DNA of 64,000 nt from contig CDROCS010002078.1 in assembly GCA_977020255.1 (NCBI GenBank), positions 124,001 to 188,000 of the forward strand, written 5' to 3'. Below the pieces are notes generated by a model that saw only the letters and a list, made by a program, of their open reading frames with translations, had not been told where the DNA came from and searched no databases. Position numbers and translations under genes: made by a program. Shown in pieces: positions 15,313 through 39,917 of this stretch (position 1 is the first letter of the stretch; each line of letters opens with the position of its first letter). The stretch comes from Obrimoposthia wandeli. Lineage: Eukaryota.

Positions 15313-15904
15313 ATTTTAATGTACAAAATTAACAATTTTAACCGAAATATCCGTACTTTCATCTACTGTTGTGTGCAAATTTGATTTTTGCATTTCATTA
15401 ATCATTTCTTTCACTGACCCTGACTTATTAATAAAGACATCGACATTTTATAATCTGTATTCGTAAAATCATATACCATAATAATTTCTTCAGTTCTCAC
15501 CGTCGGTACATATTTATAATTTAATTAAAAGCTAAAATATTAATGATACCTTTAAACCCCATCCTAAAATATTATTTTCATTAAAGGGAAATATTTCATG
15601 TTGTGTTATATAATTCTTATAAATATCATGTTAATTATTTTTATATCCTACAATATCAGTTGCATAATCATGAAGGTGAAATTACAGGTAGAGTTTGAAT
15701 TTTTGTGAATGTATAAAATAATAAATTTGTTAGGTTTGAGAATTAAGAAATTTAAATATTTTAGTCGATTAAATACTAAAATAAAAATCCTTGAAAGCAA
15801 GGTTGAAAATTAAATTAAATATTAATTTTAGTTTTAGAATTGAAATTAGTGGAATTTAGGGTAAAAATTAGGAGGACCACGAAGGTCGTGTATAATGTGA
15901 AATG

Positions 15905-15911
15905 TATAAAA
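15905..15911 (+). promoter_or_regulatory. Candidate TATA box in LTR U3
   Basis: TATAAAA ~180 bp into the LTR, upstream of a strong splice donor. Positional inference only. Confidence 0.4.
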
Positions 15912-16015
15912 GTTAGATTAATTAACCCAAAAGTGCAACAAAAGACACATTAACTAAGCAAAGAAGAAAAAAGGGAACAATATCGAACGTCAATCAAAAT
16001 CGAACGTCAATCAAG

Positions 16016-16066
16016 GTAAGCACATTTTCGTGCAGTTAAATTGGAGTGTTTAAAATTAATTTTCAG
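16016..16066 (+). other. Candidate 51-nt mini-intron / splice donor inside the LTR
   Basis: AAG|GTAAGC ... TAATTTTCAG|CTG: canonical donor and acceptor. Also present in both duplicated copies in the 3' LTR. Confidence 0.45.
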
Positions 16067-16596
16067 CTGCCGCAAAAGACTCCAGTTGAAACCGCTGTCG
16101 ACATTGCTGACTGACAGACAGGAGTTGCAGAATCGACTATAAAAGTCGTCGACAAGAAAACGAAATACACAACCGGAAAAAGCAATATCCCAATCTACTG
16201 AGAAATAGACCACAAAAAACCAAGGAAAACCAACATTGTCCCTAGCAGCAACAAGGTGGTTTTGTGATAGACTTGGAGATTTAATTATTGATTTAGCAAA
16301 CTAACTGATTGGGAAATTCTCACGTTTCGTCACACAAGACTTAAAGATCAATCTATCACGGATTTGGGCAACGTCGTAACAGCGACATACAAATCGATTC
16401 TATTCAACCGAACTCGATCTATCACGGAGCAGAGCTTGTGAACCAGTTCAATTGTTGTTCCAGTCAGCACTATATCAGCGAATTTTCATTCGGCAATTCA
16501 AATTCAGTCAGCCGATCGGTTTTTGTGTTCGATCTCAGTATATTCCGGAACGCTTCAGGATATCTCAACCTCGAGACAAAAAACGTAAGAGAGATT

Positions 16597-16948
16597 ACTA
16601 AAATTTGTCTCAATTGTCCTAAAGTTGTCATAAAGTTTGACACTAAAATTGTCTCAATTGTCCTAAAGTTGTCATAAAGTTTGACACTAAAATTGTCTAA
16701 ATTGTCCTAAAGTTGTCATAAAGTTTGACACTAAAATTGTCTAAATTGTCCTAAAGTTGTCATAAAGTTTGACACTAAAATTGTCTAAATTGTCCTAAAG
16801 TTGTCATAAAGTTTGACACTAAAATTGTCTAAATTGTCCTAAAGTTGTCATAAAGTTTGACACTAAAATTGTCTAAATTGTCCTAAAGTTGTCATAAAGT
16901 TTGACACTAAAATTGTCTAAATTGTCCTAAAGTTGTCATAAAGTTTGA
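16597..16948. repeat. 44-bp tandem array in the LTR (~8 units)
   Basis: GACACT recurs exactly every 44 bp (16639-16903, 7 occurrences). The 3' LTR has the same count (38877-39141). Confidence 0.95.
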
Positions 16949-17329
16949 AGAGAAGTTTTGTCTAAATTGCCATAAAAGTTTGAAGAGAAGTTTTTGTCTA
17001 AATTGCCATAAAAGTTTGAAGAGAAGTTTTGTCTAAATTGCCATAAAAGTTTGAAGAGAAGTTTTTGTCTAAATTGCCATAAAAGTTTGAAGAGAAGTTT
17101 TGTCTAAATTGCCATAAAAGTTTGAAGAGAAGTTTTGTCTAAATTGCCATAAAAGTTTGAAGAGAAGTTTTTGTCTAAATTGCCATAAAAGTTTGAAGAG
17201 AAGTTTTGTCTAAAATTGCCATAAAAGTTTGAAGAGAAGTTTTTGTCTAAATTGCCATAAAAGTTTGAAGAGAAGTTTTGTCTAAATTGCCATAAAAGTT
17301 TGAAGAGAAGTTTTGTCTAAATTGCCATA
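16940..17329. repeat. 35/36-bp tandem array in the 5' LTR (11 units)
   Basis: Unit AAAGTTTGAAGAGAAGTTTT(T)GTCTAAATTGCCAT(A). 11 units here versus 6 in the 3' LTR (39178-39390). Confidence 0.95.
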
Positions 17330-17824
17330 GTTTTGGTATAAAGATAAAAGTTTGCCATTAAAGTTAAATTGGGAATTAAAGTTAGAGTTTGACATAAAAG
17401 TCACATTAATTTGAAAATCTATAACTTGAGCTTATTCGCGAGTTAGAGGAACGACTCTAAAAACTCGATCACCCTTAACATAAAATCGATACGTGGTTCA
17501 TCCCCACTTGTTGTAGAGACTTACAGAAGTCTTAGGAATTTTTACTATACTTTTTAGAAAATACGTACATAAACGTATTGTTGTGTTTTAGTTTCGTGAA
17601 TTACAAATAAACAATTTCCTACATTAGAACAAGTTGTTTTTGCACCCTTCAGAATAAGAGACATCAAATCAAATACCTTCAGATAGTACAAGAGATAGGC
17701 AACCATAACACTAAGTAGGCCACGACCAACTTTAAGACCTGCTTCTAATCGAACTCACGTTGGGGCCCTCCGCACTCAAGAGGATCTATACAAAGTTTCG
17801 TATAGAAACCCCAACATATTAAAG

Positions 17825-17842
17825 TGGTGCCCCGAGTGAGGA
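17825..17842 (+). promoter_or_regulatory. Primer-binding site complementary to the 3' end of elongator tRNA-Met
   Basis: TGGTGCCCCGAGTGAGGA is 17/18 identical to the complement of the recalled vertebrate tRNA-Met(e) 3' end (TGGTGCCCCGTGTGAGGA). It lies 8 nt downstream of the LTR end. Confidence 0.8.
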
Positions 17843-17870: not shown

Positions 17871-18170
17871 AGAATAAGTTCAGATAAGTTTTGGAAAATT
17901 GAGAATAAGTTTCAGGTGAATAGAATAAGTTCAGATAAGTTTCAGATAATTGAGAATAAGTTTCAGGTAAACAGAATAAGTACAGATATTAAGAATAAGT
18001 TTCAGATATTAAGAATAAGTTTCAGATATTAAGAATAAGTTTCAGATATTGAGAATAAGTTTCAGATAAATTGAGAATAAGTTTCAGATAAATTGAGAAT
18101 AAGTTTCAGCAGAAGAATATAGACAATTGAGAATAAGTTTCAGAAGAAGAGATAAGTAAATTGAGATAAG
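17871..18170. repeat. ~20-bp degenerate tandem array in the 5' leader
   Basis: Repeating (ATT/G)AGAATAAGTTTCAGAT units. Confidence 0.9.
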
Positions 18171-18703
18171 AATTTGATAAGTTTTGAGAAATCGAGTAGA
18201 TTTGTTCCTCGAAGTTAAGAATTTGATAAGTTTTGAGAAATCGAGTAGATTTGTTCCTCGAAGTTAAGAATTTGATAAGTGTTGAGAAATCGGGTAGATT
18301 TGTTCCTCGAAGTTAAGAATTTGATAAGTTTTTGAGAAATCGAGTAGATTTGTTCCTCGAAGTTAAGAATTTGATAAGTTTTGAGAAATCGAGTAGATTT
18401 GTTCCTCGAAGTTAAGAATTTGATAAGTGTTGAGAAATCGAGTAGATTTGTTCCTCGAAGTTAAGAATTTGATAAGTGTTGAGAAATCGGGTAGATTTGT
18501 TCCTCGAAGTTAAGAATTTGATAAGTTTTGAGAAATCGAGTAGATTTGTTCCTCGAAGTTAAGAATTTGATAAGTGTTGAGAAATCGGGTAGATTTGTTC
18601 CTCGAAGTTAAGAATTTGATAAGTTTTTGAGAAATCGGGTAGATTTGTTCCTCGAAGTAAGAATTCGATAAGTTTTGAGAAGTCGAGTGGATTTGTTCCT
18701 CGA
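18168..18703. repeat. 49-bp tandem array (11 units) in the 5' leader
   Basis: GTTCCTCGA recurs every 48-50 bp from 18204 to 18695. Confidence 0.95.
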
Positions 18704-18720
18704 GTCAGTAAATTTTATAA

Positions 18721-18931
18721 GTGAGAATCGAGTGGATTGATACTCGAAGTAATTAATTGAATAAGTTAAGTCGGGAGACTCTGTCCTCGAACTAATTAAA
18801 AAGATAAAAATCGTAAATAAATTGATAAAGTGAGAATCGAGTGGATTGATACTCGAAGTAATTAATTGAATAGGTTAAGTCGGGAGACTCTGTCCTCGAA
18901 CTAATTAAAGAGATAAAAAATCGTAAAATAA
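18721..18931. repeat. ~109-bp tandem duplication in the 5' leader
   Basis: GTGAGAATCGAGTGGATTGATACTCGAAG...AAAAATCGTAAA occurs twice (18721, 18830). Confidence 0.9.
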
Positions 18932-19350
18932 GAATTGTGAAATAAGATAAAAATAATAAGTATATTGATATAGTAAACGAATACATAATTGATAAGACAA
19001 CGGATAATAGAAAAGGACCCGCGTTTAATACTAGAAGACAAAGCCAGATTCCCAAGGAAGAGACAAATAATAATAAAGTTAACCGAATTGAACAGGTTCC
19101 CCAAACAGATAACAAAGTAACAGAAAAGACTAGAGTCGAAGAAAACGTATCAGAAAGAGACGTAAATCAATCAGCAGTTTCAACCGATAGTTTTGATCTG
19201 ACTGAGTTAATTGGTGACATAAACCCAGAAGAAATTGATAATCTTGAAGTTCAAAACCCAGAAGAAATTGAAATTGCCAATCCAGTAGTTATTGAAGAAG
19301 TTCAAGTAAATAATATTGAAGGAATAGTTGAAGAGGATATAGCTGAAAAT

Positions 19351-22300
19351 ATGGCTCACCCAGGAGCTCAAGCAGATATTAATGCAGGAAATAATGTAGG
19401 TGAAATGAATGCCGAGCAGTTGGCACGAGCTTTAAATGCGACGTTGAGACCCAATTTTTCAGGATCATTGCAGATTACAAAGTTTAAAGGAGATGAGGAA
19501 AGTATTTGTGACTTCCTCGCAGAATATTCGAGTTGTGCAGATGTTCAAGGATGGAACGATAAAGAAAAATGTGTCAGAGTACAGGCACACTTAACCGGAT
19601 TAGCACTTGAAGTGTATAAACATTTGACAGAAGCAGAACGTTTAGATTGGCCAACGTTGGAAAATGCTTTTATTGGAAAATTGGTATTAGGAGACTTAGC
19701 CAAAGTAAATAAGCGACTCATGAGAGAACGGAAACAGAAACATGATGAAGGCGTGAATGAATACGCGTATGTTTTGAGAACCTTGGCCGCAAGAGCGTAC
19801 CCAAGAAGAATAATGAGAAATCAGGACGGTAATCCTGTAGCTCCAGAAGCACAAGCAGCGGAAAATGACCGGAACCAAAATGAAATGGCAGAGGTTTTGT
19901 TAGATATATTTAGAGGAGGATTGAAAAAGGATATTAAAGTGTTATTAGCAGTATCGGATACAAATGATTTTGATAACGCCGTACGAAAGGCGAGAGAGAT
20001 TGAGAAAAATATAAAAAATAACGCAGCATTGGCAATTTACGCAATGACTGCAGGTGACGACGATAAGACAAAGGTCTTCGTGAATAAAACAGAACCGAGT
20101 AATTTTCAGAATCGAAATTATGGACAAAATAAGTTCGAAAAAGTAGATGAATCCAGTAACGGAAATAGAGATAATTTCCGAAGTAGGAATCGAGATGATT
20201 CGAGAGGTAGAAATAATAGTGAGTCTTGGAACAGGAATCGAGATGATTCAAGAGGTAGAAATAATAATGATTCGTGGAATAGAAATAGAGATGATTCCAG
20301 GAATAGATTTAATAGAGATAATTCAGGAAATCGCCAACCTTGGAGAGGAGACGATAGGAATTATAACGCCAACAGAGGAGAGCGAAGTGACTCTCGATTT
20401 GGAAATAATACAGGAAATAGCGACGGAAGATTCAATAATCGAGGAAGCGGTTTTGAATTGAATTTCCGAAGAAATGATTTTAGAGGACGCTATGATAATA
20501 GACAGAATAGTCGTCGAGTACAGTTCGAAGATGAACAAAATAAGATAGATATTCGAGGGAGAATAATGTGTTATACGTGTAAGCAAATGGGTCACTATTC
20601 GAGAGATTGTACGAGAAGTAAAGAGTTCGGAACTAACAGATTTGGAAATAATAATTTCGGTAATAATAATTTTGGAAATAATTACAGAGGATATAATTCA
20701 CCTCCGCCATGGAATAGAGGTGGTGGATATACTCCACAGCCATGGAGACTGAATAATCAGTATACAGATAGACAACAGTCACCAGGTAGATACAATAACT
20801 ATGCAGACAGACAGCAAGGAGCTGAGAGATACAATAATTACGTAGGACAGCAAGGAGCTGAGAGATATAATAATTCCGGTAGATATAATAATAATAATAA
20901 TGTTGACAAGACAAATAGTCGTGAGAGTTCGCCGAAACCGAAAGGAAATTTTAGTTATGTAAGCGATGACAGTGATAGGAATCGCGAAACCGAGCTGCGA
21001 CGCGAAATAGATTTTGAGGATAGTGATAGTAAATTTGAACGAATGTTGGGAATAATTAAAGATTCACCACATACAAAGATGGCAAATTCATCTACGTTGT
21101 CGAAACAAGAGAAAAGTCTACATTCGAGAGAAGAGATGAATGATTTAATGAATAGAATATTAGAAGCGTATGAGACACCAATAGAGAAAACGTGTAACGC
21201 ACAACCTATGACTGATCATGTAGAAGCAGCAAGAAATGCTACGAGTATGGAAAATGTAAAAAAGATAATTAGTGAAGCTAAGGAGACGTTAAATCAACCG
21301 TTAGATGAAACGAGTGAAGCTCCAGAAGTTTTGGCCAAATTGCAAACAATTAAAGTGCACCGATTGGAAGAAGTGCGTGCAGAATTGGTTAAACATAGTC
21401 ATGATAACTTGGGTTACAAAGAAGTACCCCGAGGACTACTGAAAGGTTATGGTCGTTATGTACAGAGATCAAACCAAAAAGGAACGATGAAAATTTCACT
21501 TCGATTAATTTCCGGACAGATAATACATGAAAAACTTAACGTGTATCAAACAATGAAAACGATTCGGAAAAAGTTGGCTGAGAAACTTGAAATTGATGGA
21601 ATGAATATGTTGTTCCATTATAAAGGGAGATCACTAGATGATGAGGACGTACCAGTCGAGTTTGGATATCCGATAGGAAATGAATTAGAGGAAAAAATTG
21701 ATGTCATCACTGTAGGACGTCAAGAGTTAGTAGATAATGAAGGATTAACCGAGATATTGAATTCTGCGTTAGAAATGATAAAAACGCCTATAGAAATTTT
21801 AGACAGTTCAAGTGAAAGCGGAGATAATGATGTAGCTGAAGCTTGGAACAAGACATCCACACCAGAACCATACGTAGCTGAATTACAAGACGTGGAACTA
21901 GAAAATGAGTTGACGACTCCAGTGGTCGAAGTACCACCAGAACCAGAAATAATTCAAACCAGACAAGATGAAGTCACGGATACAGCTAACCAAGTGAGAC
22001 AAAGCGAAACCGTAACCCAACTAGTAGGAGAAGACGAAGTCTCCGAGATTGTAGATTTGGATTCACCAATTTGGCATGCTGCATACAAAGATAGACAAGC
22101 AGAGCAGATGATGCGACAAAATGAAGAGATTGGCCATGAAGAAGGACCAAGTCAAGAGATACAGTATAATGATGAAACGTATGATCCAGGAGAGAATCAA
22201 GCTGAGTATCAGTATTTTCGAAGAGGACCTGGAAGACCTAGAAAAGGCAAAAGTATATTACGAAATGTTCTAACTGCACCACAAACTGATGAAGAAAGAC

Positions 22301-25299
22301 ATCTAAGCATTGGACAGTTAGCAGCGTCATTAGAGCAGTATAGTGCAGAGAGGAATGAAGATATCAGAGGTGATATGAATTCGGAAACTCCAAGTAGTAA
22401 AGATATACTTACGGGAATTCTCAGGCAAGTGAAGCCGAAGTTGTTCAAAATGTATAGAGATGAAACAACCGATATAACAGACAATTTGACTAAAGCAGTC
22501 AGATCACAGATGTCTGCAGTAAAGAGAATGACCGCGAATCATGTATACCATGCATCAATAGATAGATTTTATGACGGTGAAGTTTTAGCGAGATTATGTG
22601 GAAACCAGACTACAAATAAAAAGTTAATTACAGCGATCACATATCTATGTTTCCAATTGACGGAACGAACGAGCCAACCTCACGAAGTCAAACAAGGAAT
22701 AAATGAAGCAATGTATTTGATAGAGAATGTATTACAGAGACGAATTGACGAAAATGGAGGTTGGGCAAAATTAAGTGACTATGCTAAAACCATTGTGGAA
22801 ATGAATGAAGACGATGACGAACAATGTCATGAGAATCGTCAAAAGGAAAATAAACAATACCGTCCGAAAGAGAGAAACAATCAACCAAATATGTCCACAA
22901 CAATGATGATGATGATGTTAGTAATGTTCATGGGAATGCAACAGGCATCAGGATTGATAGCATATGACTGTAGCATACCAAAGATGGGACAAAAGTATTC
23001 ACTGCTCGACAGCGAAGACTGCCCAGAGTCACAACCGTCAAAATTAGAAGTTAAAGGTGTTGAAAACTACTTTGTGTATCAGGATGTTGATAAAGTACAA
23101 GTAGAAGTGAAAGAATGTTCAATCCATTCAAGTTATCACGAATTCTATTGTGGCCATAGAAGTTTTATGTCGGAAATCACACCTACCACACCGTACAAGG
23201 CACATAAGGTTTTGCCGAGAGATTGCGAAGACGCATTTCGAACGGGAACAATAGAGGTAGACAAGAATTACAAACCTGAAGTAAAAATTGGAGTGAGACG
23301 ATACGAAACAGTCACGAGAGTCGGACAACGATGGGCCGATGGATCCTGTGACGGAGAAACAAAAAACGTGCGTGGAACCAAAGTATCTGAGTTAGTAATG
23401 GACGTAACTTACAAAATCGAATTAAAAACATGGACCGCCAATTTTGATAAAAAGACACAACTAATGATGAAGTATCCAGAATGTAAAATGACAGATACAT
23501 CTTGTTTTACAGGCGAATCCACAATTGTGTATCAAATAAATCCGAAGCAATGCTCTTTAGTATTTTTGAAAGAGATTAGTTTTAATAAAATAAAAGGGTT
23601 CCTGTATAATAAAGATGGAGAAGGGTTCCTGTATAATAAAGTTGGAAAAGGATTGCTAAATGAAACAAGACCAATTCCAATGACAAAGACACCTACACTG
23701 TTAATGGCAACATCAATAGAAGAAGGATTGATATTTATTAAAAAGAGAAACAAAGCGCGATGCGGAATGACTGTTAGTACCACAAACTATCCAGGAATAG
23801 TTTTGTCTAAAGAAGCAATAGCATTGGCAGAAACCAAGCTAAAACCAAAAGATATGCAGCTACACACGTATTTTAATAATAAAATTGATTTCTATTATCA
23901 TAAAGGATTGATGCAAATGGAACAGTTATATCGGATGATGATCGAAAGAGATTGCCAGCTAAACAAAGAGATCGTAAGAACAAAGTTAGCATTAGCTATT
24001 ACGAATCCAGACATGGTAGCACCATTATTACCCTTGGATGAAGGAGTATTTGCTAAAACCATGGGAGAAGTATTGTATACTTACAAGTGTAATAAAGTAG
24101 AGGTACAGTTGAGAAAAACAGATCGATGTACGAGTGAATTGGCAGTAACGTATAATTTAAAAGATCTTTTTGTTGAACCAATCACGAGAATGTTACTTCC
24201 AAAAGACACTCCAACTAAAGAAATCAGCTGCTCTAATATAATGGCACCTGAATATCAGATGACGAATAATCTATGGATAACGTTACCTGATCGGAAGCCA
24301 ACGACAACCCCAGCGATGATAAGAATGACGAATCTTAAAGGTAAAATGAAATTCCAAGCGGTGGAAAATATGGAGAACGCAGGATTGTACAATGAAAAAG
24401 ATTTAAAAGCGGCGTGGAACGAAATAATGTTTCCAGTAAGAAGAGCCAGAGTACTTACGGAGAGTGTACATCGAGCATTACCACCAGGAGCGAGATATGC
24501 GAATTTCGATATGTTATTATCGCCAAGTCATTTCAAGGAAGCAGCACATCAGACACTTAGAAAGATGTGGGGGAAATTCCTTGTTTTAGGACAATTATTT
24601 TCGGGTATCATAGGTATTTATGTTATAATTAAATTTGTGCAGGTAATTATAGCCCAGGTGTTGTCTACGTATAGTTTATACAGGATAACCGGAATCACCT
24701 GGCAACTTATAATTGGATGTTTTCCATTTTTAGCAAAATATCTAATGCACCATCATCACGAGAACGAGTTGCGAGCCCTCAAGAAGGAACAACACCAAAC
24801 AAGAACCATGATGCGAGAACCAAGAAACTATCGAGACGATAACGACGACGATAATGATAGTCCAGAAGTATATGCAAAGATACCAGGAAAACCAAAGATT
24901 CCGTTACCAGACAAGGAAGAAGTGGCGTTAAACCTATATCCAATGAAGGAACTAAAGGAGGAGAAGGAAAAGTTCAAGAGAGGCATCTTAATGATAAGAT
25001 GGCCTAAAGTGAGCTACAGTGAAATTCCACAAGCAGAGGAAAAAGACAAAAAAGATAATTCCAGAAGAATTCTAAAGTCTAGGATATCAAATGAGAATCC
25101 ATATGCTCCACCACAAGTAGCAGTAACATTGAACGAAAGAGAATATCTTGCCGAAGTTGATACCGGATCTGCAGTATCAGTACTGAGTAAAGAAATCTTG
25201 TCATCAAAAGAATTAAGAGAAGTATGTCCTAGAAAACAGACATTTGTTAACGTGAATGGTACAGATGTAGTGTCGGAAGGAACACTAAAATGTTCATAG
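19351..25299 (+). CDS. gag: Polyprotein segment 1 (1,982 aa): Gag CA/NC - Ubl - AT-hook - Bcl-2-like - chuvirus-like glycoprotein - N-terminal half of aspartic protease 1
   Basis: Gag capsid motifs (ITKFKGD...GWNDKEK...LTGLA...W..LENAF; RKQ..DEGVNEY...LAARAYP). CCHC knuckle CYTCKQMGHYSRDC at 20569-20610. DTG at 25159-25167. Ends at a TAG in mid-protease; the frame is also open without ATG from 18946. Confidence 0.95.
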   Translation: MAHPGAQADINAGNNVGEMNAEQLARALNATLRPNFSGSLQITKFKGDEESICDFLAEYSSCADVQGWNDKEKCVRVQAHLTGLALEVYKHLTEAERLDWPTLENAFIGKLVLGDLAKVNKRLMRERKQKHDEGVNEYAYVLRTLAARAYPRRIMRNQDGNPVAPEAQAAENDRNQNEMAEVLLDIFRGGLKKDIKVLLAVSDTNDFDNAVRKAREIEKNIKNNAALAIYAMTAGDDDKTKVFVNKTEPSNFQNRNYGQNKFEKVDESSNGNRDNFRSRNRDDSRGRNNSESWNRNRDDSRGRNNNDSWNRNRDDSRNRFNRDNSGNRQPWRGDDRNYNANRGERSDSRFGNNTGNSDGRFNNRGSGFELNFRRNDFRGRYDNRQNSRRVQFEDEQNKIDIRGRIMCYTCKQMGHYSRDCTRSKEFGTNRFGNNNFGNNNFGNNYRGYNSPPPWNRGGGYTPQPWRLNNQYTDRQQSPGRYNNYADRQQGAERYNNYVGQQGAERYNNSGRYNNNNNVDKTNSRESSPKPKGNFSYVSDDSDRNRETELRREIDFEDSDSKFERMLGIIKDSPHTKMANSSTLSKQEKSLHSREEMNDLMNRILEAYETPIEKTCNAQPMTDHVEAARNATSMENVKKIISEAKETLNQPLDETSEAPEVLAKLQTIKVHRLEEVRAELVKHSHDNLGYKEVPRGLLKGYGRYVQRSNQKGTMKISLRLISGQIIHEKLNVYQTMKTIRKKLAEKLEIDGMNMLFHYKGRSLDDEDVPVEFGYPIGNELEEKIDVITVGRQELVDNEGLTEILNSALEMIKTPIEILDSSSESGDNDVAEAWNKTSTPEPYVAELQDVELENELTTPVVEVPPEPEIIQTRQDEVTDTANQVRQSETVTQLVGEDEVSEIVDLDSPIWHAAYKDRQAEQMMRQNEEIGHEEGPSQEIQYNDETYDPGENQAEYQYFRRGPGRPRKGKSILRNVLTAPQTDEERHLSIGQLAASLEQYSAERNEDIRGDMNSETPSSKDILTGILRQVKPKLFKMYRDETTDITDNLTKAVRSQMSAVKRMTANHVYHASIDRFYDGEVLARLCGNQTTNKKLITAITYLCFQLTERTSQPHEVKQGINEAMYLIENVLQRRIDENGGWAKLSDYAKTIVEMNEDDDEQCHENRQKENKQYRPKERNNQPNMSTTMMMMMLVMFMGMQQASGLIAYDCSIPKMGQKYSLLDSEDCPESQPSKLEVKGVENYFVYQDVDKVQVEVKECSIHSSYHEFYCGHRSFMSEITPTTPYKAHKVLPRDCEDAFRTGTIEVDKNYKPEVKIGVRRYETVTRVGQRWADGSCDGETKNVRGTKVSELVMDVTYKIELKTWTANFDKKTQLMMKYPECKMTDTSCFTGESTIVYQINPKQCSLVFLKEISFNKIKGFLYNKDGEGFLYNKVGKGLLNETRPIPMTKTPTLLMATSIEEGLIFIKKRNKARCGMTVSTTNYPGIVLSKEAIALAETKLKPKDMQLHTYFNNKIDFYYHKGLMQMEQLYRMMIERDCQLNKEIVRTKLALAITNPDMVAPLLPLDEGVFAKTMGEVLYTYKCNKVEVQLRKTDRCTSELAVTYNLKDLFVEPITRMLLPKDTPTKEISCSNIMAPEYQMTNNLWITLPDRKPTTTPAMIRMTNLKGKMKFQAVENMENAGLYNEKDLKAAWNEIMFPVRRARVLTESVHRALPPGARYANFDMLLSPSHFKEAAHQTLRKMWGKFLVLGQLFSGIIGIYVIIKFVQVIIAQVLSTYSLYRITGITWQLIIGCFPFLAKYLMHHHHENELRALKKEQHQTRTMMREPRNYRDDNDDDNDSPEVYAKIPGKPKIPLPDKEEVALNLYPMKELKEEKEKFKRGILMIRWPKVSYSEIPQAEEKDKKDNSRRILKSRISNENPYAPPQVAVTLNEREYLAEVDTGSAVSVLSKEILSSKELREVCPRKQTFVNVNGTDVVSEGTLKCS
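21487..21717 (+). other. Ubiquitin/SUMO-like domain within segment 1
   Basis: MKISLRLISGQIIHEKLNVYQTMKTIRKKLAEKLEIDGMNMLFHYKGRSLDDEDVPVEFGY...IDVITVG (77 aa). Follows the beta-grasp pattern and the SUMO-like F.Y.G..L.D...P.E.G...IDV pattern; no terminal GG. Confidence 0.75.
22290..22790 (+). other. Putative Bcl-2-like helical domain
   Basis: YLIENVLQRRIDENGGWAKL resembles the BH2 helix (cf. YL...L..WIQENGGW..F). Upstream is a weak BH1-like segment, and a hydrophobic stretch follows. Confidence 0.5.
22891..24744 (+). other. env: Env-like glycoprotein of chuvirus G / class III type with internal signal peptide and TM
   Basis: Signal peptide MSTTMMMMMLVMFMGMQQASG, then LIAYDC...SLL...C...FYCGHRS...G...DGSCDG...YFNNKIDF...DCQL...LA..NP...GEVLYTYKC..VEV..R....C..EL.V...F.EP.TR.L...ISC, then WGKF..LG....G.IG plus hydrophobic TM. 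This follows the recalled chuvirus glycoprotein cysteine and motif pattern. Confidence 0.85.
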
Positions 25300-27732
25300 A
25301 ATATCGATGGAAGAGCATTGCAGTTAAATGCTAGAATATTCACAGATTGCGGAAGTCCAGTCATGATTGGGATGGACGTAATAAGAATGTTTGAAGGAAT
25401 AATTATACTACCAAACAACAAGAGTTGTAAGAATGACAGTTCAGTGAGAGAGATAAAAATGTTGAGAGGACCTATAGTCGAAAAGGAAAAATGCACTACG
25501 TTCCGTATGGGAGGTTCGTACCCAGACAGAAAACAGGAAGCGCTAGCAAAGTCGATACTTCACTACAAAAATGTAAATTTCGGACCACAAGATACGACGA
25601 GGAGAAAAATAACATATGTGAATCTGTCAGAAAGGGATCCCATGAGATTCGAGAGAAAGAGACGAAATATATTAGAACAGTACTATTCAAAAGGAATGGC
25701 ACGTAAAATGGCAAGATCAGGTTTAGAAATGCTAAACGCGACAAGTAGTTATGGTCATGAGATAGTAGTACGATGCGTATGGTGTAGAGTAAAGTTTAGA
25801 GAATGGGAAAAGAATGAAAACCCAATGAGACGTCATAAAAGAGATGCACCAAATTGTCCTTTTCTTTTGAAACTAAAAACGTCAAACGTACCAGAAATCC
25901 AAACGGGAAAAGCACCCGATTTCGATTACAGTGACGGGATTCCGAAAGGAGAATCAGCTCTAATAGCAGGAAGAGTAATAACGAATAGTCGAATTGAAGA
26001 TATATTCGAAGTTATGCGAGAAGTGATCGAATGTGACGAACAGTATCGAGAAATAACTTTCGAAGACCCAAGACTTAAAAAATTGGCAAAAAAGGGACTT
26101 TTTGCTATAAAAAAGGATGGTAAAGACGTAATTAAATGCCACAAGTGTAAAAAAGAACGAATTATCGACAGATATACTCTTGAGCTACCTAAGAAAATTT
26201 TACATCATGAATTTTGCGAATTTTGTACTTTTAAAAATAAAATAAAGCAAAAAGAACAGAAAACCGAATGTATAATCGAATATCAGATCACACGGAAAGA
26301 GATTTTGGCTCAACAAGACACACCGGTAGTGTCATTCGTGAGAAGATTATATCCAAAAGAAGCAGAAAGAATCAGAGAATTGGTAGAATTAAAAATAAAA
26401 ACTACGCGAAACGGATACGGATCGATTTTTGAATTACTGCGAGATAAAGATGACAGTACAATTGAAACAAAAGAGAAAGAGTACATAAATGAACTAGAAT
26501 ACGTACTAGAAGATCCGGAATGCGCAGTTTGCATGGTCAACAAAATAGAAGTTGCCTTTCTACCATGCGGACATGTAAGAACATGTCGGAGATGTGCAAA
26601 TGAAATGGTATCATGTCCAATTTGTCGAAGAATAATAGATCGACAAGTGAGAAACATTAGATTTCACTATCCAAACATAGGAAGTGGACTGACAGAGTGT
26701 AATAATTCGATAAATACAATATACCATATGGGAAACATAAATGGAGCACAGCGACCAGCAGCTATCATTAGAGTAAATAATTTAAGTGTAAAAGCCTTAA
26801 TTGATACAGGTGCTGTAGCTTCGATAGTAAGTGAAGACTGTTTGACAGAGGAACAGAAACGAACAATGGCAGAACCAGATGAATTCTTGGTATCGGTCAA
26901 TGGAGACCTTGTAAAAGTGACGGGAATATTACCATGTACATTTATAATAGGACGTAATACGATCACTATACCAGTTAGAATCATGAAAGAATGTCCTGAA
27001 CCTACAATTTTAGGAATGGATGTACTATCACAACTTAAAGGGATAAGTATTGATTTACAAGATCCAAGATTGAAGGATAGCACATCAAATAGACAAATAA
27101 ACCAAATTAATGTAATTATAGAGAATCCTATAAAAATCGGTAAAAGATCGCAATTTCTTATTCAAGGTCACACATTATCAGAAGATAAAGGACCAGTTGT
27201 GTTCGAACCATCACGAGATTTCATAGAGAAATACGAATTACCAGTTGTGAGTACAGTATGCCTGATCGAAAACCACAAAATACCAGTTAGACTGATGAAT
27301 ACAACCAACAATGACATTCTATTATACAGAGGAATGAGGTTGGGAAAGATAGCACAGATGGAGAATCCCACCGTGTGTGCTATGAAACTCGATAAAGATA
27401 CGAATGATTACGAAGAAATAGTAATCCAATCAGAAAGACTGACAACTAGAGAAAAGAAACAATTACTTGATCTAATACATAAATTTCCGAAAGTAATTGC
27501 AAAAAACCCATATGACATAGGAGAAACACCTGTCATAAAACATACAATACCACTGACAGAAGACAAAGTAGTCAGAAGAAGACCATATCGAGTACCATTA
27601 CAGTTACAAGATGAAGTAAAAAGTCAGATCGAAGATATGTCTAAAACAGGAGTAATTAGACCGAGTTTTTCGCCATTCTCAGCACCTGTGGTGTTGGTAA
27701 AAAAGAAGGATGGGAAAATGATGGGAAAATGA
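25300..27732 (+). CDS. Polyprotein segment 2: rest of protease 1 - BIR - BIR-like - RING (IAP) - protease 2 - N-terminal part of RT
   Basis: Same frame as segment 1 after the TAG (track ORF 25318-27732). BIR CVWC-x16-H-x6-C (25774-25857); second BIR-like LAKKGLF...KDVIKCHKC; IAP-type RING CAVC...PCGH..C..C...CPIC (26521-26628); DTG at 26803; ILGMD. Confidence 0.93.
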   Translation, partial: NIDGRALQLNARIFTDCGSPVMIGMDVIRMFEGIIILPNNKSCKNDSSVREIKMLRGPIVEKEKCTTFRMGGSYPDRKQEALAKSILHYKNVNFGPQDTTRRKITYVNLSERDPMRFERKRRNILEQYYSKGMARKMARSGLEMLNATSSYGHEIVVRCVWCRVKFREWEKNENPMRRHKRDAPNCPFLLKLKTSNVPEIQTGKAPDFDYSDGIPKGESALIAGRVITNSRIEDIFEVMREVIECDEQYREITFEDPRLKKLAKKGLFAIKKDGKDVIKCHKCKKERIIDRYTLELPKKILHHEFCEFCTFKNKIKQKEQKTECIIEYQITRKEILAQQDTPVVSFVRRLYPKEAERIRELVELKIKTTRNGYGSIFELLRDKDDSTIETKEKEYINELEYVLEDPECAVCMVNKIEVAFLPCGHVRTCRRCANEMVSCPICRRIIDRQVRNIRFHYPNIGSGLTECNNSINTIYHMGNINGAQRPAAIIRVNNLSVKALIDTGAVASIVSEDCLTEEQKRTMAEPDEFLVSVNGDLVKVTGILPCTFIIGRNTITIPVRIMKECPEPTILGMDVLSQLKGISIDLQDPRLKDSTSNRQINQINVIIENPIKIGKRSQFLIQGHTLSEDKGPVVFEPSRDFIEKYELPVVSTVCLIENHKIPVRLMNTTNNDILLYRGMRLGKIAQMENPTVCAMKLDKDTNDYEEIVIQSERLTTREKKQLLDLIHKFPKVIAKNPYDIGETPVIKHTIPLTEDKVVRRRPYRVPLQLQDEVKSQIEDMSKTGVIRPSFSPFSAPVVLVKKKDGKMMGK

Positions 27733-29984
27733 GATTCTGTATAGATTTCAGAGAACTGAACAAGATCACAAGAAAAGATGTGTATCCATTACCTAGAATC
27801 GAAGAGATGCTCGATAAATTGGGTAATTCAGATTATTTTACAACATTGGATTTGCAGAGTGGATACTGGCAAATCGAGATAGAGGAAGAGGATAAACACA
27901 AAACAGCCTTTTCCTGTGGAGATGGATTATACGAATGCGAAAAGATGCCATTTGGACTGACAGGAGCTCCAGCAACATTTCAGCGTTGCATGAATTTTGT
28001 ACTCGCATCGTGTGCAAACACGATGGTTTATATTGATGACATAATAATATTTTCGAAAACGTTCGAAGAACATTTAAAAAATCTTGAAGTTGTATTTAAA
28101 AGACTGGAAAACGCTAAATTAAAAGTTAAACCTACAAAATGCGAATGGGCTAAAGAGCGAGTAACATTTTTAGGACATATAGTATCGAAAGAAGGCATTC
28201 GACCTGATCCAGCGAAGATCGAGAAAGTAAAAGCGCATTTAGCGCCAAAGACTGTTAAAGAGATACAGAGTTTTTTAGGTCTTGCGAATTATTATAGACG
28301 ATTTGTTGAACATTTTTCAGATATAGCAACACCATTGAGAAAGTTGACGAGGAAAGATGAGAAGTTCATATGGGGAGAAGAAGCCCAACAAGCGTTCGAG
28401 CATTTAAAAGAAAGACTGATAAAAGCACCAATATTAGCGTTTCCAGATATAAACCGACAATTCATACTCATGACAGATGCAAGTAACTATGCTGTAGGAG
28501 CAGTATTGGGACAAGAGGATGACGAAGGAAGAGAACACGTCATTGCGTATGCGAGTAGAGGATTAAACAGAGCCGAAAGAGTATACTCTGTTATCGAAAA
28601 GGAATGTCTAGCCATAGTGTATTCATGTAGACAGTACAGACACTATTTGCTAGGACAAAAAGTATTCCTGTATACAGATCACAAACCACTACAATTCTTA
28701 TATAAACATAGAGATGAGATGAGTAGATTAAACAGATGGTTTCTAAAATTGGCCGAATTCGATCTAGAAATCCGTTATAGAACCGGAAAGTCGAACGGCA
28801 ACGCAGATTGTTTGTCGAGATTGACAAATGTAGACGAGAAAGGAAACATAATTCCAGAAGAAGATGAAACCAATGATCAAAAAGGAGAAGCAAATCTACT
28901 GACGATTTTGCTAAAAACGGGTAAAATAGACAAAGAGATCATCAAAGAACAGAAAGAAGATGAAGAACTGAGTCTAATCAAAGAATTGTTGGTGAAAGGA
29001 GACCTAAACGATGAAATGACGAAAAAATACTCGATAAAAGAAGGAATCTTGTATATTGTCAATAATGTCGGAAAGATAGTAGTAGTAATTCCGAAGTCAT
29101 TGAAAACAGCAGTGATGATCCAGTATCACGACGGAACACTAGGAGGACATCTGTCAGGGCGAAAGACGATAGCCAGAATCAAAGAGAAGTACCATTGGGA
29201 TGGTATGGAAGACGACATAAAACAATGGTGTAAACAATGTAAAGTATGTTTAACCAGAAAAGACACCGGAACTCGTACTAAAGTTCCGTTGAAACCAATG
29301 CCAGTTCCCTTGGCACCAATGGAATTCACAGCGATGGATATATTGGGACCATTGAGAGAATCAAGTAAAGGAAACAAGTATGTCATAGTATTTACGGATT
29401 ACATGACGAGATGGGTAGAAGCATATCCCATGCAGAACCAGAAAGCTGAAACAATAGCACAAATCTTAGTGGAAGAGATAATATTTCGATATGGAGTGCC
29501 TAGAAAATTGCTAACAGATCAAGGTAAGAACTTCACTGGAGAAGTCATAAAAGCAGTATCGAAGATATTCGGAATCATGAAGTTACAAACTTCACCATAT
29601 CACCCACAGACAGATGGTCTGGTAGAAAGGTTTAATAAAACTTTATGTATGATGGTACAATCCTATTGCTCCGACAAGCAAGAGGATTGGGATAAATATT
29701 TACCTTCATGTTTATATGCTTACAGGAATTCAGTTCGAGAGGCGATGGGTCACACACCATTCTATCTGATGTATCTCAGACAGAACAATATGCCGATGGA
29801 TCTGGAGTGGACCGAGCCAACATCTCAGTATCTAGAAACTGAACAATACATTGTCGTTATGAAGGAAAGGTTACAAGATGCTTGGACCAAAGCCGGATTG
29901 AAGTTGAAATTCAATCAAGAAGGTTACAAGGAACAATACGACAAAAAGCAAAACCACATGAATTTAGAGTCGGAGATCAAGTGA
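27729..29984 (+). CDS. pol: Polyprotein segment 3: RT - RNase H - integrase
   Basis: YIDD (28029-28040); RNase H TDASNYAVG...EKECLAI...TDHKPL; IN HHCC zinc finger, MDILGP, TDQG, HPQTDGLVERFN. Separated from segment 2 by an 11-bp duplication. Confidence 0.97.
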   Translation: MRFCIDFRELNKITRKDVYPLPRIEEMLDKLGNSDYFTTLDLQSGYWQIEIEEEDKHKTAFSCGDGLYECEKMPFGLTGAPATFQRCMNFVLASCANTMVYIDDIIIFSKTFEEHLKNLEVVFKRLENAKLKVKPTKCEWAKERVTFLGHIVSKEGIRPDPAKIEKVKAHLAPKTVKEIQSFLGLANYYRRFVEHFSDIATPLRKLTRKDEKFIWGEEAQQAFEHLKERLIKAPILAFPDINRQFILMTDASNYAVGAVLGQEDDEGREHVIAYASRGLNRAERVYSVIEKECLAIVYSCRQYRHYLLGQKVFLYTDHKPLQFLYKHRDEMSRLNRWFLKLAEFDLEIRYRTGKSNGNADCLSRLTNVDEKGNIIPEEDETNDQKGEANLLTILLKTGKIDKEIIKEQKEDEELSLIKELLVKGDLNDEMTKKYSIKEGILYIVNNVGKIVVVIPKSLKTAVMIQYHDGTLGGHLSGRKTIARIKEKYHWDGMEDDIKQWCKQCKVCLTRKDTGTRTKVPLKPMPVPLAPMEFTAMDILGPLRESSKGNKYVIVFTDYMTRWVEAYPMQNQKAETIAQILVEEIIFRYGVPRKLLTDQGKNFTGEVIKAVSKIFGIMKLQTSPYHPQTDGLVERFNKTLCMMVQSYCSDKQEDWDKYLPSCLYAYRNSVREAMGHTPFYLMYLRQNNMPMDLEWTEPTSQYLETEQYIVVMKERLQDAWTKAGLKLKFNQEGYKEQYDKKQNHMNLESEIK

Positions 29985-30708: not shown

Positions 30709-32031
30709 ATGGTATTACGTAATTCACATGGGAAAAGAGATATCATGAGAGTCCATTTAATCGACGCTGACACTGAAAAGATAATTTGTCAGATGGACAC
30801 TAAATACTTTGATGGAAAGACAATTGTATGTTGTATACCAGAATCTCACCGGTTAGACACAGATCAAACGGAAGTATCTGTAAGGTTGAGCGTAATAGAA
30901 GGATTCCATTCGCCAACCCATCCGGAAGTGACTAACAATAAAATCATCAAAGCAACGGCAGAATTACGCATTGACAGCGGATACCGGAAGTGGGAAGCTA
31001 AAAATAAAAAGCCACAAAGAATCAATATGATCCGAGAACAAGTGACCAACTCAATCCAGCCAAAATATCATGCTGAAATAGTATCATCCGCGCCAAGTGT
31101 GATCACATCGATAAACGACGAAATTATAATTTTACTAAAAAATCGATGGCCGTCATCAACTGAGATACGAGTAAACTTAATTAATTATGCGAAGACACCG
31201 ATATCTAAGCTGAATGTTACCTATTTTGATGGATTGTCCATCATGGGTAAATTGGAAACAATTGTCATGTGCTATGGAGCACAGTTCCAAGTTGAGATAC
31301 TTAAAGATAGTGTAATACCGTATCCGATTCACAAATACGAAGGGGAAATCAATCCAATTATTCTAACACCTTCATTAATTTCAGTTCAGACAGACATACC
31401 AGAATACCCTTCGAGCGAGTCTAGTGAAGACAGCGAACCGGAAAGTAACGATACAGAATCAACAGAATCCGAAGATAACATAATAGAGCGATTCGGAAGA
31501 ACCATGGAGGTTGAATTCGCTAAAGAGAGCAGAAAAAGACAAAATATAGAATTCGTGAAACAGAATATACAAGAAAGACGAATTAAATCTGCAGAAGAGA
31601 CCGAGTCGGAAGAAGACTCAACAAAGGAACAGACATCAGAGACAAAGATGAATATCTCTCCAGCAATACGAATGCTGAGAGGAAAGAAACTGGCGAAACT
31701 ATCCAACATCGACGAACAGATAGAGAAGAGATTAGAAAGACTAAAACTTGAAGAGTCAGAACTAACGCCACCAATGAGTGAGATCATTCCAGGTAAGTTA
31801 TACCTCGGAAATGTGGAGGATGCAACCGATGAAAAGAAACTGTTGAAACAAGGGATAACATATGTGATCAACGTTACAATGAATCACAAATCGCAATATC
31901 AGACGATCAGAGCTATGACATTAAGAGTAAAAGACTCAATGGACGCTAATCTTCTCGAATGGTTCGTAGAAACAAACGAAATACTTCACAGAGAACTCCG
32001 AAACCAAGGAAAAGTGTTGGTACATTGTTAG
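30709..32031 (+). CDS. Polyprotein segment 5: beta-rich repeats 2-3, acidic linker, N-terminal part of a dual-specificity phosphatase
   Basis: MSEIIPGKLYLGN...LLKQGITYVINVT...KVLVHC*. Joins segment 4 if one A is added at 30676-30679. Ends at a TAG inside the P-loop HC*KGISRS. Confidence 0.9.
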   Translation: MVLRNSHGKRDIMRVHLIDADTEKIICQMDTKYFDGKTIVCCIPESHRLDTDQTEVSVRLSVIEGFHSPTHPEVTNNKIIKATAELRIDSGYRKWEAKNKKPQRINMIREQVTNSIQPKYHAEIVSSAPSVITSINDEIIILLKNRWPSSTEIRVNLINYAKTPISKLNVTYFDGLSIMGKLETIVMCYGAQFQVEILKDSVIPYPIHKYEGEINPIILTPSLISVQTDIPEYPSSESSEDSEPESNDTESTESEDNIIERFGRTMEVEFAKESRKRQNIEFVKQNIQERRIKSAEETESEEDSTKEQTSETKMNISPAIRMLRGKKLAKLSNIDEQIEKRLERLKLEESELTPPMSEIIPGKLYLGNVEDATDEKKLLKQGITYVINVTMNHKSQYQTIRAMTLRVKDSMDANLLEWFVETNEILHRELRNQGKVLVHC

Positions 32032-33948
32032 AAAGGAATTTCTCGATCAGCAACTCTAGTATTAGCATATCTAATAAAGACTAGACGAATGCAGGTACTA
32101 GAAGCGCTAAAATACCTACAGGAGAGAAGAAGTATTGCAAACCCAAATCTTAATTTTTTGGGACAGTTGGCAAATTACCAACTTCTGTTGCAAGAACAAA
32201 GACGGATGGACGACATTCCTGAGGATCCAAAGGAAAAGAATTTCCTCCAAGCATTATCATTGACTGGGTTATTTTTAGCCGGAGTCGACAAAATTACACA
32301 GATAATGCCAAAAGTATTTTTATGTCATCCAGGAGATATAGATACTGCTGGATTAAAGTTCCACAGTATCAACCGAGTAATCAACATTGTTGAAGTCGGA
32401 AACGAGATAATTAGTCTGTGTCAAAATACTGAAGATGACACCACTCGATACATACATGCTTCCAATCGAGAAATAAACGATGCACAACAACATCTGACGA
32501 AATTGACTCAAACCATCCAAGCTGAAGTCACAGAAGGAAACGGCGTTCTGATATATCAGAAAAAAGGTACGATGTTAGCGCCTACCATAGGTGTATCCTT
32601 GTTGGTAGAGTACCATGGTCACACGCCAGAAGAAGCGATGGTCTACATCAAACAGAATAGACCGAATACGGAATTCAAACCGTTACTCGTTCGAGAAATA
32701 GAGAAATACACCGAAAAGAGGAAGCAACAACGAGAAACAAATGAAGCTACAACAACAGTGCCCAGCTTTCAATACCAAAGATTGTTAGCGATAGGCTTGT
32801 TAAGTTGTTTAATGCCGATAACGGGAGCACAAGAGATAGGCTCCAACCACGGAAATAGTTCCTGGTTCAACGAAATCCACAACTACACCATACAGTACCA
32901 TACGCCGGCACTGATGATGCTATTAGTATTGTTAGGACTAATTGATGTGTGGATCATCCGAAAATGTCTTCGATCTATGAGAACCGACAGTAAAAGATTT
33001 CAGTTTGTAAAGATGAAGAGACCAAATGGACCAACGAACAAAGTGCTTGTGTATCTAGACGAAAGGATCGAGGACAACATAGTAAATGAAGCGATATTTT
33101 ACCCACAAAACAGAATACTGAATCAATTTCGAATAGATTACGAAGCTGACCGACAGCGCACACTTGACCGAATATCAACAACATTCGCTGGATGCAAGCG
33201 AAGAAAACGAGTTGTAAAGGAAATACAAAAAGATGCTGATACAAAAGGACCAACGTATATATTCGATGGCGATGTCATCAAAACACGTGAGTATGGAAGT
33301 AAGAGAGTGATAATTGAAACGATGGAAGGACATAAAACATGTTTGTCCGCCAAAAATGGATTCGGAAAGTTGACGATACAAGGTAAACCAGTACAGTTGA
33401 TTATCGGAAGAAATGGAATCGAGGAGATGTCAAAACAACGACAGATAACAAAACGATCTAATCAGAAACAGATATCTCTCAAACGATTGATAATTAAAAC
33501 CCTTTGCAAAAGGTCGGTCAAGGCCCTGTGCACCGTTGCACAAGGATTGATCTATGGAGTAGTAATTGGATTGGTACTGCAAGCCATGCCAACCAGTAAA
33601 GCCGAATTGATGACACTATCCGAATATAATTTACATTTGAGAAATCTAGACAACACCCTAGAAATAATCAAGACATCCCACAGTAGAGCCGTGATGATCA
33701 TGTGTGTAAAAGGATGTCCAGGACGAATGTGTATAGTCCCAGCGACCGAAATGATAACACTTAATGGACATTATGGAGTTAGTGTTGTCACATGTGAAGA
33801 CTACATATTTGGACAAACTAAAATAGTGCTTCTCAGTGACATGTCCAACCAAAGTGCACACAAATTTAAAATATTAACCATCAAGAGTAAAGGAATACCA
33901 GCAGTACGTTATGGTATTCTAGAATTGGTTAAACATTACTGGCACTGA
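32032..33948 (+). CDS. Polyprotein segment 6: rest of the DSP, DSP-like pseudophosphatase, signal-peptide/TM membrane modules
   Basis: In frame after the TAG: KGISRSATLVLAYLI...EALKYLQERRSIANPNLNFLGQL. Second DSP fold (ITQIMPKVFL...INRVINI...GVLIYQKKG...EEAMVYIKQNRP) lacks the catalytic Cys/Arg. Hydrophobic segments at 32782-32829, 32908-32958 and ~33520-33603. Confidence 0.88.
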   Translation, partial: KGISRSATLVLAYLIKTRRMQVLEALKYLQERRSIANPNLNFLGQLANYQLLLQEQRRMDDIPEDPKEKNFLQALSLTGLFLAGVDKITQIMPKVFLCHPGDIDTAGLKFHSINRVINIVEVGNEIISLCQNTEDDTTRYIHASNREINDAQQHLTKLTQTIQAEVTEGNGVLIYQKKGTMLAPTIGVSLLVEYHGHTPEEAMVYIKQNRPNTEFKPLLVREIEKYTEKRKQQRETNEATTTVPSFQYQRLLAIGLLSCLMPITGAQEIGSNHGNSSWFNEIHNYTIQYHTPALMMLLVLLGLIDVWIIRKCLRSMRTDSKRFQFVKMKRPNGPTNKVLVYLDERIEDNIVNEAIFYPQNRILNQFRIDYEADRQRTLDRISTTFAGCKRRKRVVKEIQKDADTKGPTYIFDGDVIKTREYGSKRVIIETMEGHKTCLSAKNGFGKLTIQGKPVQLIIGRNGIEEMSKQRQITKRSNQKQISLKRLIIKTLCKRSVKALCTVAQGLIYGVVIGLVLQAMPTSKAELMTLSEYNLHLRNLDNTLEIIKTSHSRAVMIMCVKGCPGRMCIVPATEMITLNGHYGVSVVTCEDYIFGQTKIVLLSDMSNQSAHKFKILTIKSKGIPAVRYGILELVKHYWH

Positions 33949-36232: not shown

Positions 36233-36567
36233 TCGAAGGTAACTTTCTGACTTGAACGTGACATCATGAACTACCCTGTGTATCGCATACCGCGATAAAT
36301 TAGCTACCATAATTGTAATCATAATTATATAATCTTGTGAACTGTAAATTGACCATTACCATTTTTATGTATGATGTTTAACTGAAATTGTAATTATTAT
36401 ACTGAATTTCTAAAAAAGACAATTTTTTATGCTTAGTGTGAATGCGTAAACATGCCTAAAATCGAAACAAAACTCGGTAGGATTGGATAACTAAGGATTC
36501 GTTTTGAAATAAAAATTAAATTAACGATGAGAACGGTGAACCCCAAATTGAAAGGAGTTATTTTCTT

Positions 36568-37104
36568 ATGCAGATGAAGTGCTCTGTATGCATGGAGAAG
36601 ATTTGGGCGGTATCAGCATCCCCTGTCGGCTGCCGTCACAAATTCCACGAGGAGTGCCTCTATTTGTGGGCCAAGGCTCGACCCCCCGGCCATATCACAT
36701 GTCCACTGTGCCGGACACCCTTTGGCAAATGGACGCTCCAGAGCCGTGGAAGGCACAAGGGCACCCGATCGCCTGCCAGCTGCATTGGTGGCATACATTG
36801 CCAATGCTACGTGTGTCTCGCACGCCGGCGCGACACACAACTGGGCATCCGCGAGAGATGGCGGTCTAGTCGAGACTGCCACTCGTGGTTCCAGGCCATA
36901 CGTCTCTGGATAGAAAATCACGCGATGAACGGGCAGTATTTCGACCTGTTTGTCGAGAGCCCACACCTAACCCGGAGCCAACAACTACACCTGTACAACG
37001 GGGACAGTCCGTCCTTTCCCGACCTACCCCTGGAGCAGGTTCTGCGCTACCTGGCCAGTCGGAACCAGCCGACAATTACAATTGACCTAACTTATGACAA
37101 TTGA
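36568..37104 (+). CDS. Accessory RING-H2 protein 3 (176-178 aa), GC-rich
   Basis: CSVC...CRHKFHEECLYLW...CPLCRTPF, plus CIGGIHCQCYVC. The ATG at 36574 follows a TTTTCTTATGCAG acceptor-like site. Confidence 0.85.
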   Translation: MQMKCSVCMEKIWAVSASPVGCRHKFHEECLYLWAKARPPGHITCPLCRTPFGKWTLQSRGRHKGTRSPASCIGGIHCQCYVCLARRRDTQLGIRERWRSSRDCHSWFQAIRLWIENHAMNGQYFDLFVESPHLTRSQQLHLYNGDSPSFPDLPLEQVLRYLASRNQPTITIDLTYDN

Positions 37105-39877: not shown

Positions 39878-39917
39878 AATTAATCCATTTTACAAATCAA
39901 AATGAACAATGACAAAA

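Follow-up and report, generated by a model that had tools for sequence, protein, structure and literature searches.

A Burro-like giant Ty3/gypsy element with an IAP module between two retropepsins, and its IAP relatives on Mavericks of the same genome

The LTR element in the window, its copies and its likeness to Burro

The window, by which we mean the whole 64,000-nucleotide stretch of DNA analysed, contains a Ty3/gypsy-type LTR element of 24.1 kb (15728-39877) whose ends read TG...CA and which is flanked on both outer sides by a 4-nt target duplication. The 5' and 3' LTRs show 4 mismatches in 1,233 non-repeat bases, a near-identity that indicates a recent insertion. Across the whole element the domains run in the order Gag, ubiquitin-like, Bcl-2-like, Env, protease 1 (PR1), IAP, protease 2 (PR2), RT, RH, IN and phosphatases, and a single frame (18946-27732) holds Gag, the zinc knuckle, the ubiquitin-like and Bcl-2-like domains, the fusion glycoprotein, PR1, the IAP module and PR2. 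The features are as follows.

15728..17816, + strand: 5' LTR (TG...CA) with 44-nt and 35/36-nt tandem arrays (LTR comparison, target duplication)
17825..17842, + strand: putative primer-binding site, 8 nt beyond the LTR (read from the sequence)
19378..20049, + strand: Gag capsid-like region (Retrotrans_gag, E 0.0059, below cut-off)
20569..20613, + strand: CCHC zinc knuckle (zf-CCHC, E 1.2e-5)
21460..21729, + strand: ubiquitin-like domain (Pfam ubiquitin, E 0.0038, below cut-off)
22399..22800, + strand: Bcl-2-like domain (Pfam Bcl-2, E 0.036, below cut-off)
22900..24760, + strand: in-frame Env, a mononegavirus-type fusion glycoprotein (PF24664, E 3.5e-93)
24997..25464, + strand: PR1, DTG at 25159 (bounds are candidate cleavage sites)
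25465..26730, + strand: predicted released IAP product, 422 aa, 49.7 kDa (flanking motifs IKML and IYHM)
25651..25893, + strand: BIR1, canonical zinc ligands, type-I-like groove residues (Pfam, fold model, copy alignment)
26011..26241, + strand: BIR2, degenerate, shortened H-x3-C knuckle (weak Pfam match, fold model)
about 26300..26470, + strand: UBA-like three-helix domain (weak phmmer match, fold model)
26521..26625, + strand: IAP-type C3HC4 RING (Pfam zf-C3HC4_3, motif)
26731..27108, + strand: PR2, DTG at 26803, paralogue of PR1 (gag-asp_proteas, E 1e-7)
27109..27384, + strand: conserved 92-aa domain at the position of the Burro dUTPase-like domain (piN/piS 0.08)
27385..29984, + strand: RT, RNase H and integrase (Pfam; frame change near 27720 in the window copy)
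31720..32730, + strand: two dual-specificity-phosphatase-like domains (DSPc, E 3.8e-11 and 6.5e-22)
36520..37104, + strand: separate RING ORF near the 3' LTR (zf-RING_2, E 3.1e-7)
37368..39877, + strand: 3' LTR with an internal duplication of ~600 nt (LTR comparison)

Hydropathy places a membrane anchor of Env near 24574, and the first phosphatase-like domain of the window copy is cut by a stop (32029-32031). The putative primer-binding site presumably resembles the 3' end of elongator tRNA-Met; a primer-site search gave no match. The 5' leader (18115-18919) bears 49-nt and 109-nt tandem arrays additional to those of the LTR, and RING-like Cys/His-rich remnants in shifted frames (35570-36230) precede the 3' RING ORF. 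Inverted 230-nt ends (99% complementary; 14987-15216 and 39914-40143) enclose the LTR element, and this older unit is probably a non-autonomous DNA transposon that hosts it. Elsewhere in the window lie a remnant of a different gypsy-type element on the minus strand (1844-2686), a hAT transposase remnant (5272-6075) and, at the window end (63646-64000), a Maverick ATPase gene fragment, with no further Maverick gene in the next 16 kb.

The 1.35-Gb genome holds at least 115 copies of the module, and all 115 listed match at 98-100% identity over the whole module; the listing was drawn from 24,553 first-look candidates, and copy counts are lower bounds. An assembly artefact was considered and rejected, both on this agreement and on contigs of a second study that span the end of PR1 to BIR1 and the UBA-RING region to the PR2 active site. 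The element is also present, mostly at 95-99% identity, in a marine metagenome from another study; no RNA dataset was listed among its carriers, which counts neither way. For comparisons among copies, 40 were chosen, away from contig ends, from 150 listed by a PR1 query. The window copy has an in-frame stop in PR1 (25297-25299) that is private to it (0/40 other copies), and its IAP is therefore not joined to Gag-Env-PR1. Elsewhere in the family the DTG is retained in PR1 of 40/40 copies, a count biased by their selection with a PR1 query, and in PR2 of 37/38, while the zinc ligands are intact in 37/39 copies for BIR1 and 37/38 for BIR2. Open frames reach 5,478 aa among the 150 copies listed, and frames of 3,681 and 3,470 aa are common to the PR1 list and a phosphatase list, from which we conclude that the family encodes one polyprotein. 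A preliminary description of this DNA had the IAP made at the same level as Pol; the shared polyprotein agrees with this, except that the level would not be particular to Pol, as IAP, Gag, Env and Pol would all be equimolar.

This layout agrees with that of the Burro elements of planarians, whose domain set includes BIR, BCL2 and an in-frame Env (PMC6431247). In the passages of that source on Burro1-4 and GYPSM1 (citing Grohme 2018 and Jurka 2007), these are described as having very high copy number and one giant ORF with Gag, a ubiquitin/SUMO-like domain, a BCL2-like domain, Env before PR, BIR and RT-RH-IN. The window element likewise has LTRs and the PR-RT-RH-IN order, its family has one ORF of ~5,000 aa starting with Gag (broken in the window copy), Env lies in frame between the BCL2-like domain and PR, and a BIR lies within the polyprotein. 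The ubiquitin-like and Bcl-2-like domains stand in the right order, both as weak Pfam matches, and the conserved 92-aa stretch occupies the dUTPase-like place with no match in Pfam or PDB. In contrast, Burro exceeds 30 kb, the nine frames of our element that were scanned gave no Pfam match to the MATH or ankyrin domains of Burro1, and our element has one CCHC knuckle by Pfam, phosphatase-like domains and the 3' RING ORF, in a host that may not be a dugesiid. Owing to its length below 30 kb and the missing MATH and ankyrin matches we file it as Burro-like, not Burro1, a likeness judged from published descriptions and not from Burro sequence; the passages on Burro in PMC6431247 do not state that two proteases flank its BIR. 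The Burro1 B-IAP, as summarised in PMC13465017, is likewise a BIR and RING region inside a polyprotein; that summary does not mention a second BIR, a UBA, a cleavage motif or a Maverick link, which may be in the primary paper. The core finding, an IAP in a giant retroelement polyprotein, is already known in kind from planarian Burro. Maverick kinship, the UBA, the cleavage motif, the groove signature and possibly a wider host range may be additions; our literature search did not find them and turned up no Maverick-retroelement IAP link, and the primary Burro papers, which lay outside its scope, may cover some.

The IAP module and its flanking proteases

The BIR, the second BIR, the RING and the two DTGs (25159, 26803) claimed in the preliminary description all lie where it had put them, in one frame. 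BIR1 carries the motif C-x2-C-x16-H-x6-C (25774-25857), matches the Pfam BIR profile at E 9e-12, and in its structure model aligns with BIRC6 at Z 13.0 (rmsd 2.0 over 85 residues). A second Cys/His cluster starts at 26137, and the degenerate BIR2, at E 0.009 below the Pfam cut-off, is supported by a model that aligns with BIR folds (Z 7.3-7.8; rmsd 2.6-3.4 across 70-85 residues) and that, in an unbiased comparison with 48,161 chains, finds BIR proteins at ranks 1-14, with the caveat that its alignment included canonical IAPs, which can bias the model towards the BIR fold. Modelling, a check proposed at the outset, thus supports both BIR folds, and the IAP-type C3HC4 RING is confirmed by its zf-C3HC4_3 match (E 7e-12). 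The models divide the module into four domains, one of them a UBA-like part whose best match among the 48,161 chains is the XIAP UBA (2kna; Z 5.7, rmsd 1.8, 53 residues) and which has a weak phmmer match to the stretch of cIAP1 between BIR3 and RING. Pfam gave no match for this part, and a genome scan with the UBA_BIRC2-3 profile was uninformative, as it gave none either in the genome or in its controls. As modelled, the module has the cellular order BIR-BIR-UBA-RING, with middling support for the UBA (Z 5.7).

The complete module had been placed at 25620..26660; its domains stand, but its start is nearer 25550, and the UBA-like domain (26300-26470) and the PR1 stop had been overlooked. Nor does the baculoviral architecture attributed to it fit well: two BIRs and a RING on a mobile genome are common to both, but the layout here is BIR-BIR-UBA-RING, with an added UBA-like domain, and viral IAPs in BFVD share 13-23% identity with it in structure alignments. 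By sequence and by fold, the best PDB match of the module is cIAP1 (3t6p). Cellular RING-IAPs of the cIAP1, XIAP and DIAP2 type have the same domain order, yet identity to them is 22-25%, and the element differs in its shortened BIR2, its type-I-like BIR1 and its longer post-RING tail.

The module does sit between two retropepsins, as had been proposed: PR1 and PR2 are paralogues with 30% identity over 99 ungapped residues (E 2e-16), both keep the DTG in the family, and PR1 of another copy matches gag-asp_proteas at E 8.9e-8. In the polyprotein frames the pattern I-x-M-[IL]-R is found five times where 0.11 would be expected, and two of the five occurrences bound PR1. No other pattern of the same form is as surprising; it was picked post hoc, a choice allowed for in a shuffle test in which 6 of 200 shuffles gave any equally extreme pattern. 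Looser versions stand before PR2, after PR2 and before RT, and are not enriched (26 against 20.5 expected; 120 of 1,000 shuffles). IKML at 25453 is kept in 36/37 copies and IYHM at 26719, the site 3' of the RING that fits the looser motif only, in 37/37. Taken as cleavage sites, these motifs would give a PR1 of 156 aa, an IAP of 422 aa (49.7 kDa) and a PR2 of 126 aa, in place of the 35-40 kDa product first suggested.

A retropepsin typically cleaves at its own termini, and the dimerisation of IAP RINGs depends on a free C-terminus; the RING of this IAP would become C-terminal only after the predicted cleavage. It is distinctly unlikely, in our estimation, that the IAP is left unreleased, fused to a protease or to the Env tail, and has its role at the membrane or in assembling particles, for instance through ubiquitination at budding. 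The loose match after the RING would suit such a fusion, and the ubiquitin-like domain and extra RING ORFs suggest that the element makes wide use of the ubiquitin system, but all five stand-alone relatives of the IAP, described below, terminate 5-20 residues past the RING, and the need of IAP RINGs for a free end also speaks against it.

Relatives of the IAP and the nature of the host

Among the best 10 of 150 rows of a BIR scan of the genome, one is a survivin-like and one a BRUCE-like locus (by reading), and eight belong to two stand-alone IAP families whose homology with the LTR protein is clear (identities of 35 and 37%). Flanking DNA places both families in Maverick/Polinton elements, upstream of the ATPase. 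The Maverick marks include a protein-primed PolB (E 6.9e-19), an rve integrase (8.7e-14), an A32-like ATPase (7.9e-7), a weakly matched jelly-roll capsid (0.0097) and terminal inverted repeats (376 and 589 nt long, separated by about 15 kb). Family B comes as 15-kb units that have inverted ends and encode integrase, capsids and PolB; of the three family A loci first read, two are inverted pairs lying in arms of 4 kb, accompanied by a phosphatase-like gene. Several variants were seen alongside these: 14-kb family A units whose 4-kb inverted arms each carry an IAP, with no PolB inside (L041-L045; G000:C609, C777); a family A IAP with its first BIR tandemly duplicated in a 466-aa frame (L133; G000:C6379:143591-145023); and a 7.15-kb tandem array with a truncated Maverick-type BIR per unit (L050-L051; G000:C3084). 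A dual-specificity-phosphatase-like gene of family A (L041:7387-8121) is 31-32% identical to that of the LTR element (31720-32160), and on sequence could possibly be a second shared cargo. Passages of PMC8502044 note IAP homologues on adintoviruses/Polintons, which likewise are Maverick-type elements with a stand-alone IAP; shared descent with a retroelement polyprotein IAP is not stated in them.

Searching 1.84 billion proteins with a profile gave, among the best 150 matches, three proteins that cover the whole module (P0003, P0062 and P0077), all stand-alone and given without genomic context; three of the six lineage members went into the query profile, which favours them. In a tree of 39 proteins by 340 columns, whose bootstrap is not fully settled and whose branches are long and make-up uneven, the LTR IAP, the two Maverick IAPs and these three proteins form one branch (100/99), within which the LTR IAP, P0077 and both Mavericks group at 95/89 and the LTR IAP and P0077 are sisters at 95/79. 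Phylogeny against viral and host IAPs had been suggested earlier; the tree does group the IAP with Maverick-borne ones, and its outgroup, 33 rows picked from about 155 (L128, without a matched BIR, was dropped), includes no named baculoviral IAP. The shortened H-x3-C knuckle occurs in five of the six lineage members and in one other of 160 proteins (a near-copy of P0062 aside), and the UBA part alone is nearest to the Maverick proteins, which supports the kinship apart from the tree. A quick RING-only tree (62 columns), in which one outsider joined the lineage at 81, was set aside as too short. The LTR IAP and those of the Mavericks in the same genome thus belong to one divergent lineage, compatible with transfer in either direction.

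Word-index protein searches gave one distant match, none among longer proteins and none for the host survivin-like gene; IMG/VR yielded three loci with ordinary viral IAPs, JGI metagenomes no match to P0062, and atlas searches general IAP clusters only.

Mitochondrial inserts on two contigs that also bear copies of the element translate sensibly only when AAA is taken as Asn (table 9), a code also used by echinoderms. Their order is nad1-cox1-cox3 (names by reading), without the nad6-nad5-cox3 block that is assigned, in the parts of PMC5446695 drawn on here, to the group containing triclads. These inserts may indicate a flatworm-type host, perhaps not a triclad, and the host is plausibly a flatworm that is neither a freshwater nor a land planarian; the Burro family is placed in Dugesiidae and land planarians in the account of PMC13465017. 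The assembly also contains numerous COX1 genes of bacteria and another animal mitochondrial contig, read by table 5 (L144-L149), and so includes other organisms.

We tentatively propose, at rather less than even likelihood, that the Burro-like IAP was taken from a Maverick, a DNA virus-like element, and not from the present genes of the host. On this view one divergent RING-IAP lineage would persist in flatworms as cargo of mobile elements, having moved between a lineage of DNA viruses and a retroelement with an env gene; duplication of the protease would have allowed the IAP to be released from the polyprotein, and the element family may reach beyond triclads. The chances seem evenly balanced that the LTR element and the Mavericks instead each took the IAP from a fast-evolving cellular gene, or that the Mavericks took it from the LTR element: P0003, P0062 and P0077 could be cellular, the sister of the LTR protein, P0077 (95/79), is not a Maverick copy, and a host gene of this sort would account for the published Burro1 IAP. 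Against these readings, the best 10 of 150 rows of the BIR scan include no cellular RING-IAP, and a centipede IAP query ranked Maverick-type frame lengths first, although such genome scans score top candidates only and miss split exons. The flatworms surveyed in PMC13159474 have reportedly lost cellular RING-IAPs, although Schmidtea and Macrostomum are absent from its main text and free-living forms may be unsampled there; if that loss is as reported, mobile elements would be a reservoir of the RING-IAP class.

Selection and the likely mode of action

Among the 40 copies, piN/piS stays below 1 in all parts: it is 0.40 for BIR1, 0.26 for the linker and BIR2, 0.14 for the UBA and 0.10 for the RING, beside 0.06 for PR2 and 0.09 for RT (the PR1 value of 0.04 is discounted, as copies were picked by PR1 identity). 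Every IAP domain is under purifying selection across the family. BIR1 and the stretch preceding it are the most variable part among copies (15-23% of codons variable in BIR1 and the N-terminal region, against 0-2.5% in UBA, RING and PR2), and the UBA and RING are the best conserved parts of the IAP.

The explanation we consider probable overall is that of a Burro-like element with a captured, released, ligase-type pro-survival IAP. As the frame lengths of its copies show, this giant Ty3/gypsy element encodes one polyprotein of ~5,500 aa, into which an IAP gene would have been captured beside a duplicated protease; the paralogy of the proteases is observed and the order of events is our reconstruction. 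PR1, in cutting its own ends, would separate Pol from the Env tail with its membrane anchor, and the two proteases jointly would free an IAP of ~50 kDa with a free RING end. The freed protein would most likely serve as a ubiquitin ligase and ubiquitin-binding adaptor that keeps the producer cell alive, with substrates picked by the fast-changing BIRs and not through a classic IBM groove, and it would be retained since it aids the spread of the element.

The block of caspases first attributed to the module, with the IBM groove as the place to look, now seems doubtful. BIR1 has Arg preceding the zinc His and Asp three residues after it (38/39 copies each) in place of the type II signature (E/Q at 319 and W/H at 323, XIAP numbering); K/R and a non-aromatic residue at these positions are described in PMC6360406, as far as its relevant passages go, as typical of type I BIRs and as an obstacle to the binding of caspases and Smac. 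That the BIRs act as a classic inhibitor, binding processed caspases or IAP antagonists through this groove, is in our view unlikely, the more so as the Asp occurs in only 1 of 445 other BIRs and the groove segment of BIR2 lacks the usual length. Even so, the residues matching W310 (38/39 copies) and E314 (39/39) are kept in BIR1, and the Burro1 BIR-RING region reportedly shields stem cells against death mediated by caspases, possibly by direct binding (PMC13465017, as summarised there).

According to the same summary, a recent claim that host and transposon are mutualists in regeneration also rests on the Burro1 IAP (PMC13465017); for this question the window element offers a second, very young family. 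It makes testable the source of the IAP (Maverick or host), its release (two proteases, ~50 kDa) and its action (ligase or groove). That the animal has come to need the IAP of resident copies and keeps them intact, as in that precedent, appears somewhat unlikely here. The very high copy number would favour such domestication, and with many copies a host benefit could rest on a few, but PR1-IAP-PR2 is lesion-free in 13/37 copies, and the density of stops in resident copies is 1.9 per 10 kb for the IAP, compared with 1.6 for RT and 4.4 for RNase H: once an element has inserted, its IAP decays much as other parts do. Of 63 deletions among copies, 36 are single bases in homopolymers, and many of the copy frameshifts may be assembly errors.
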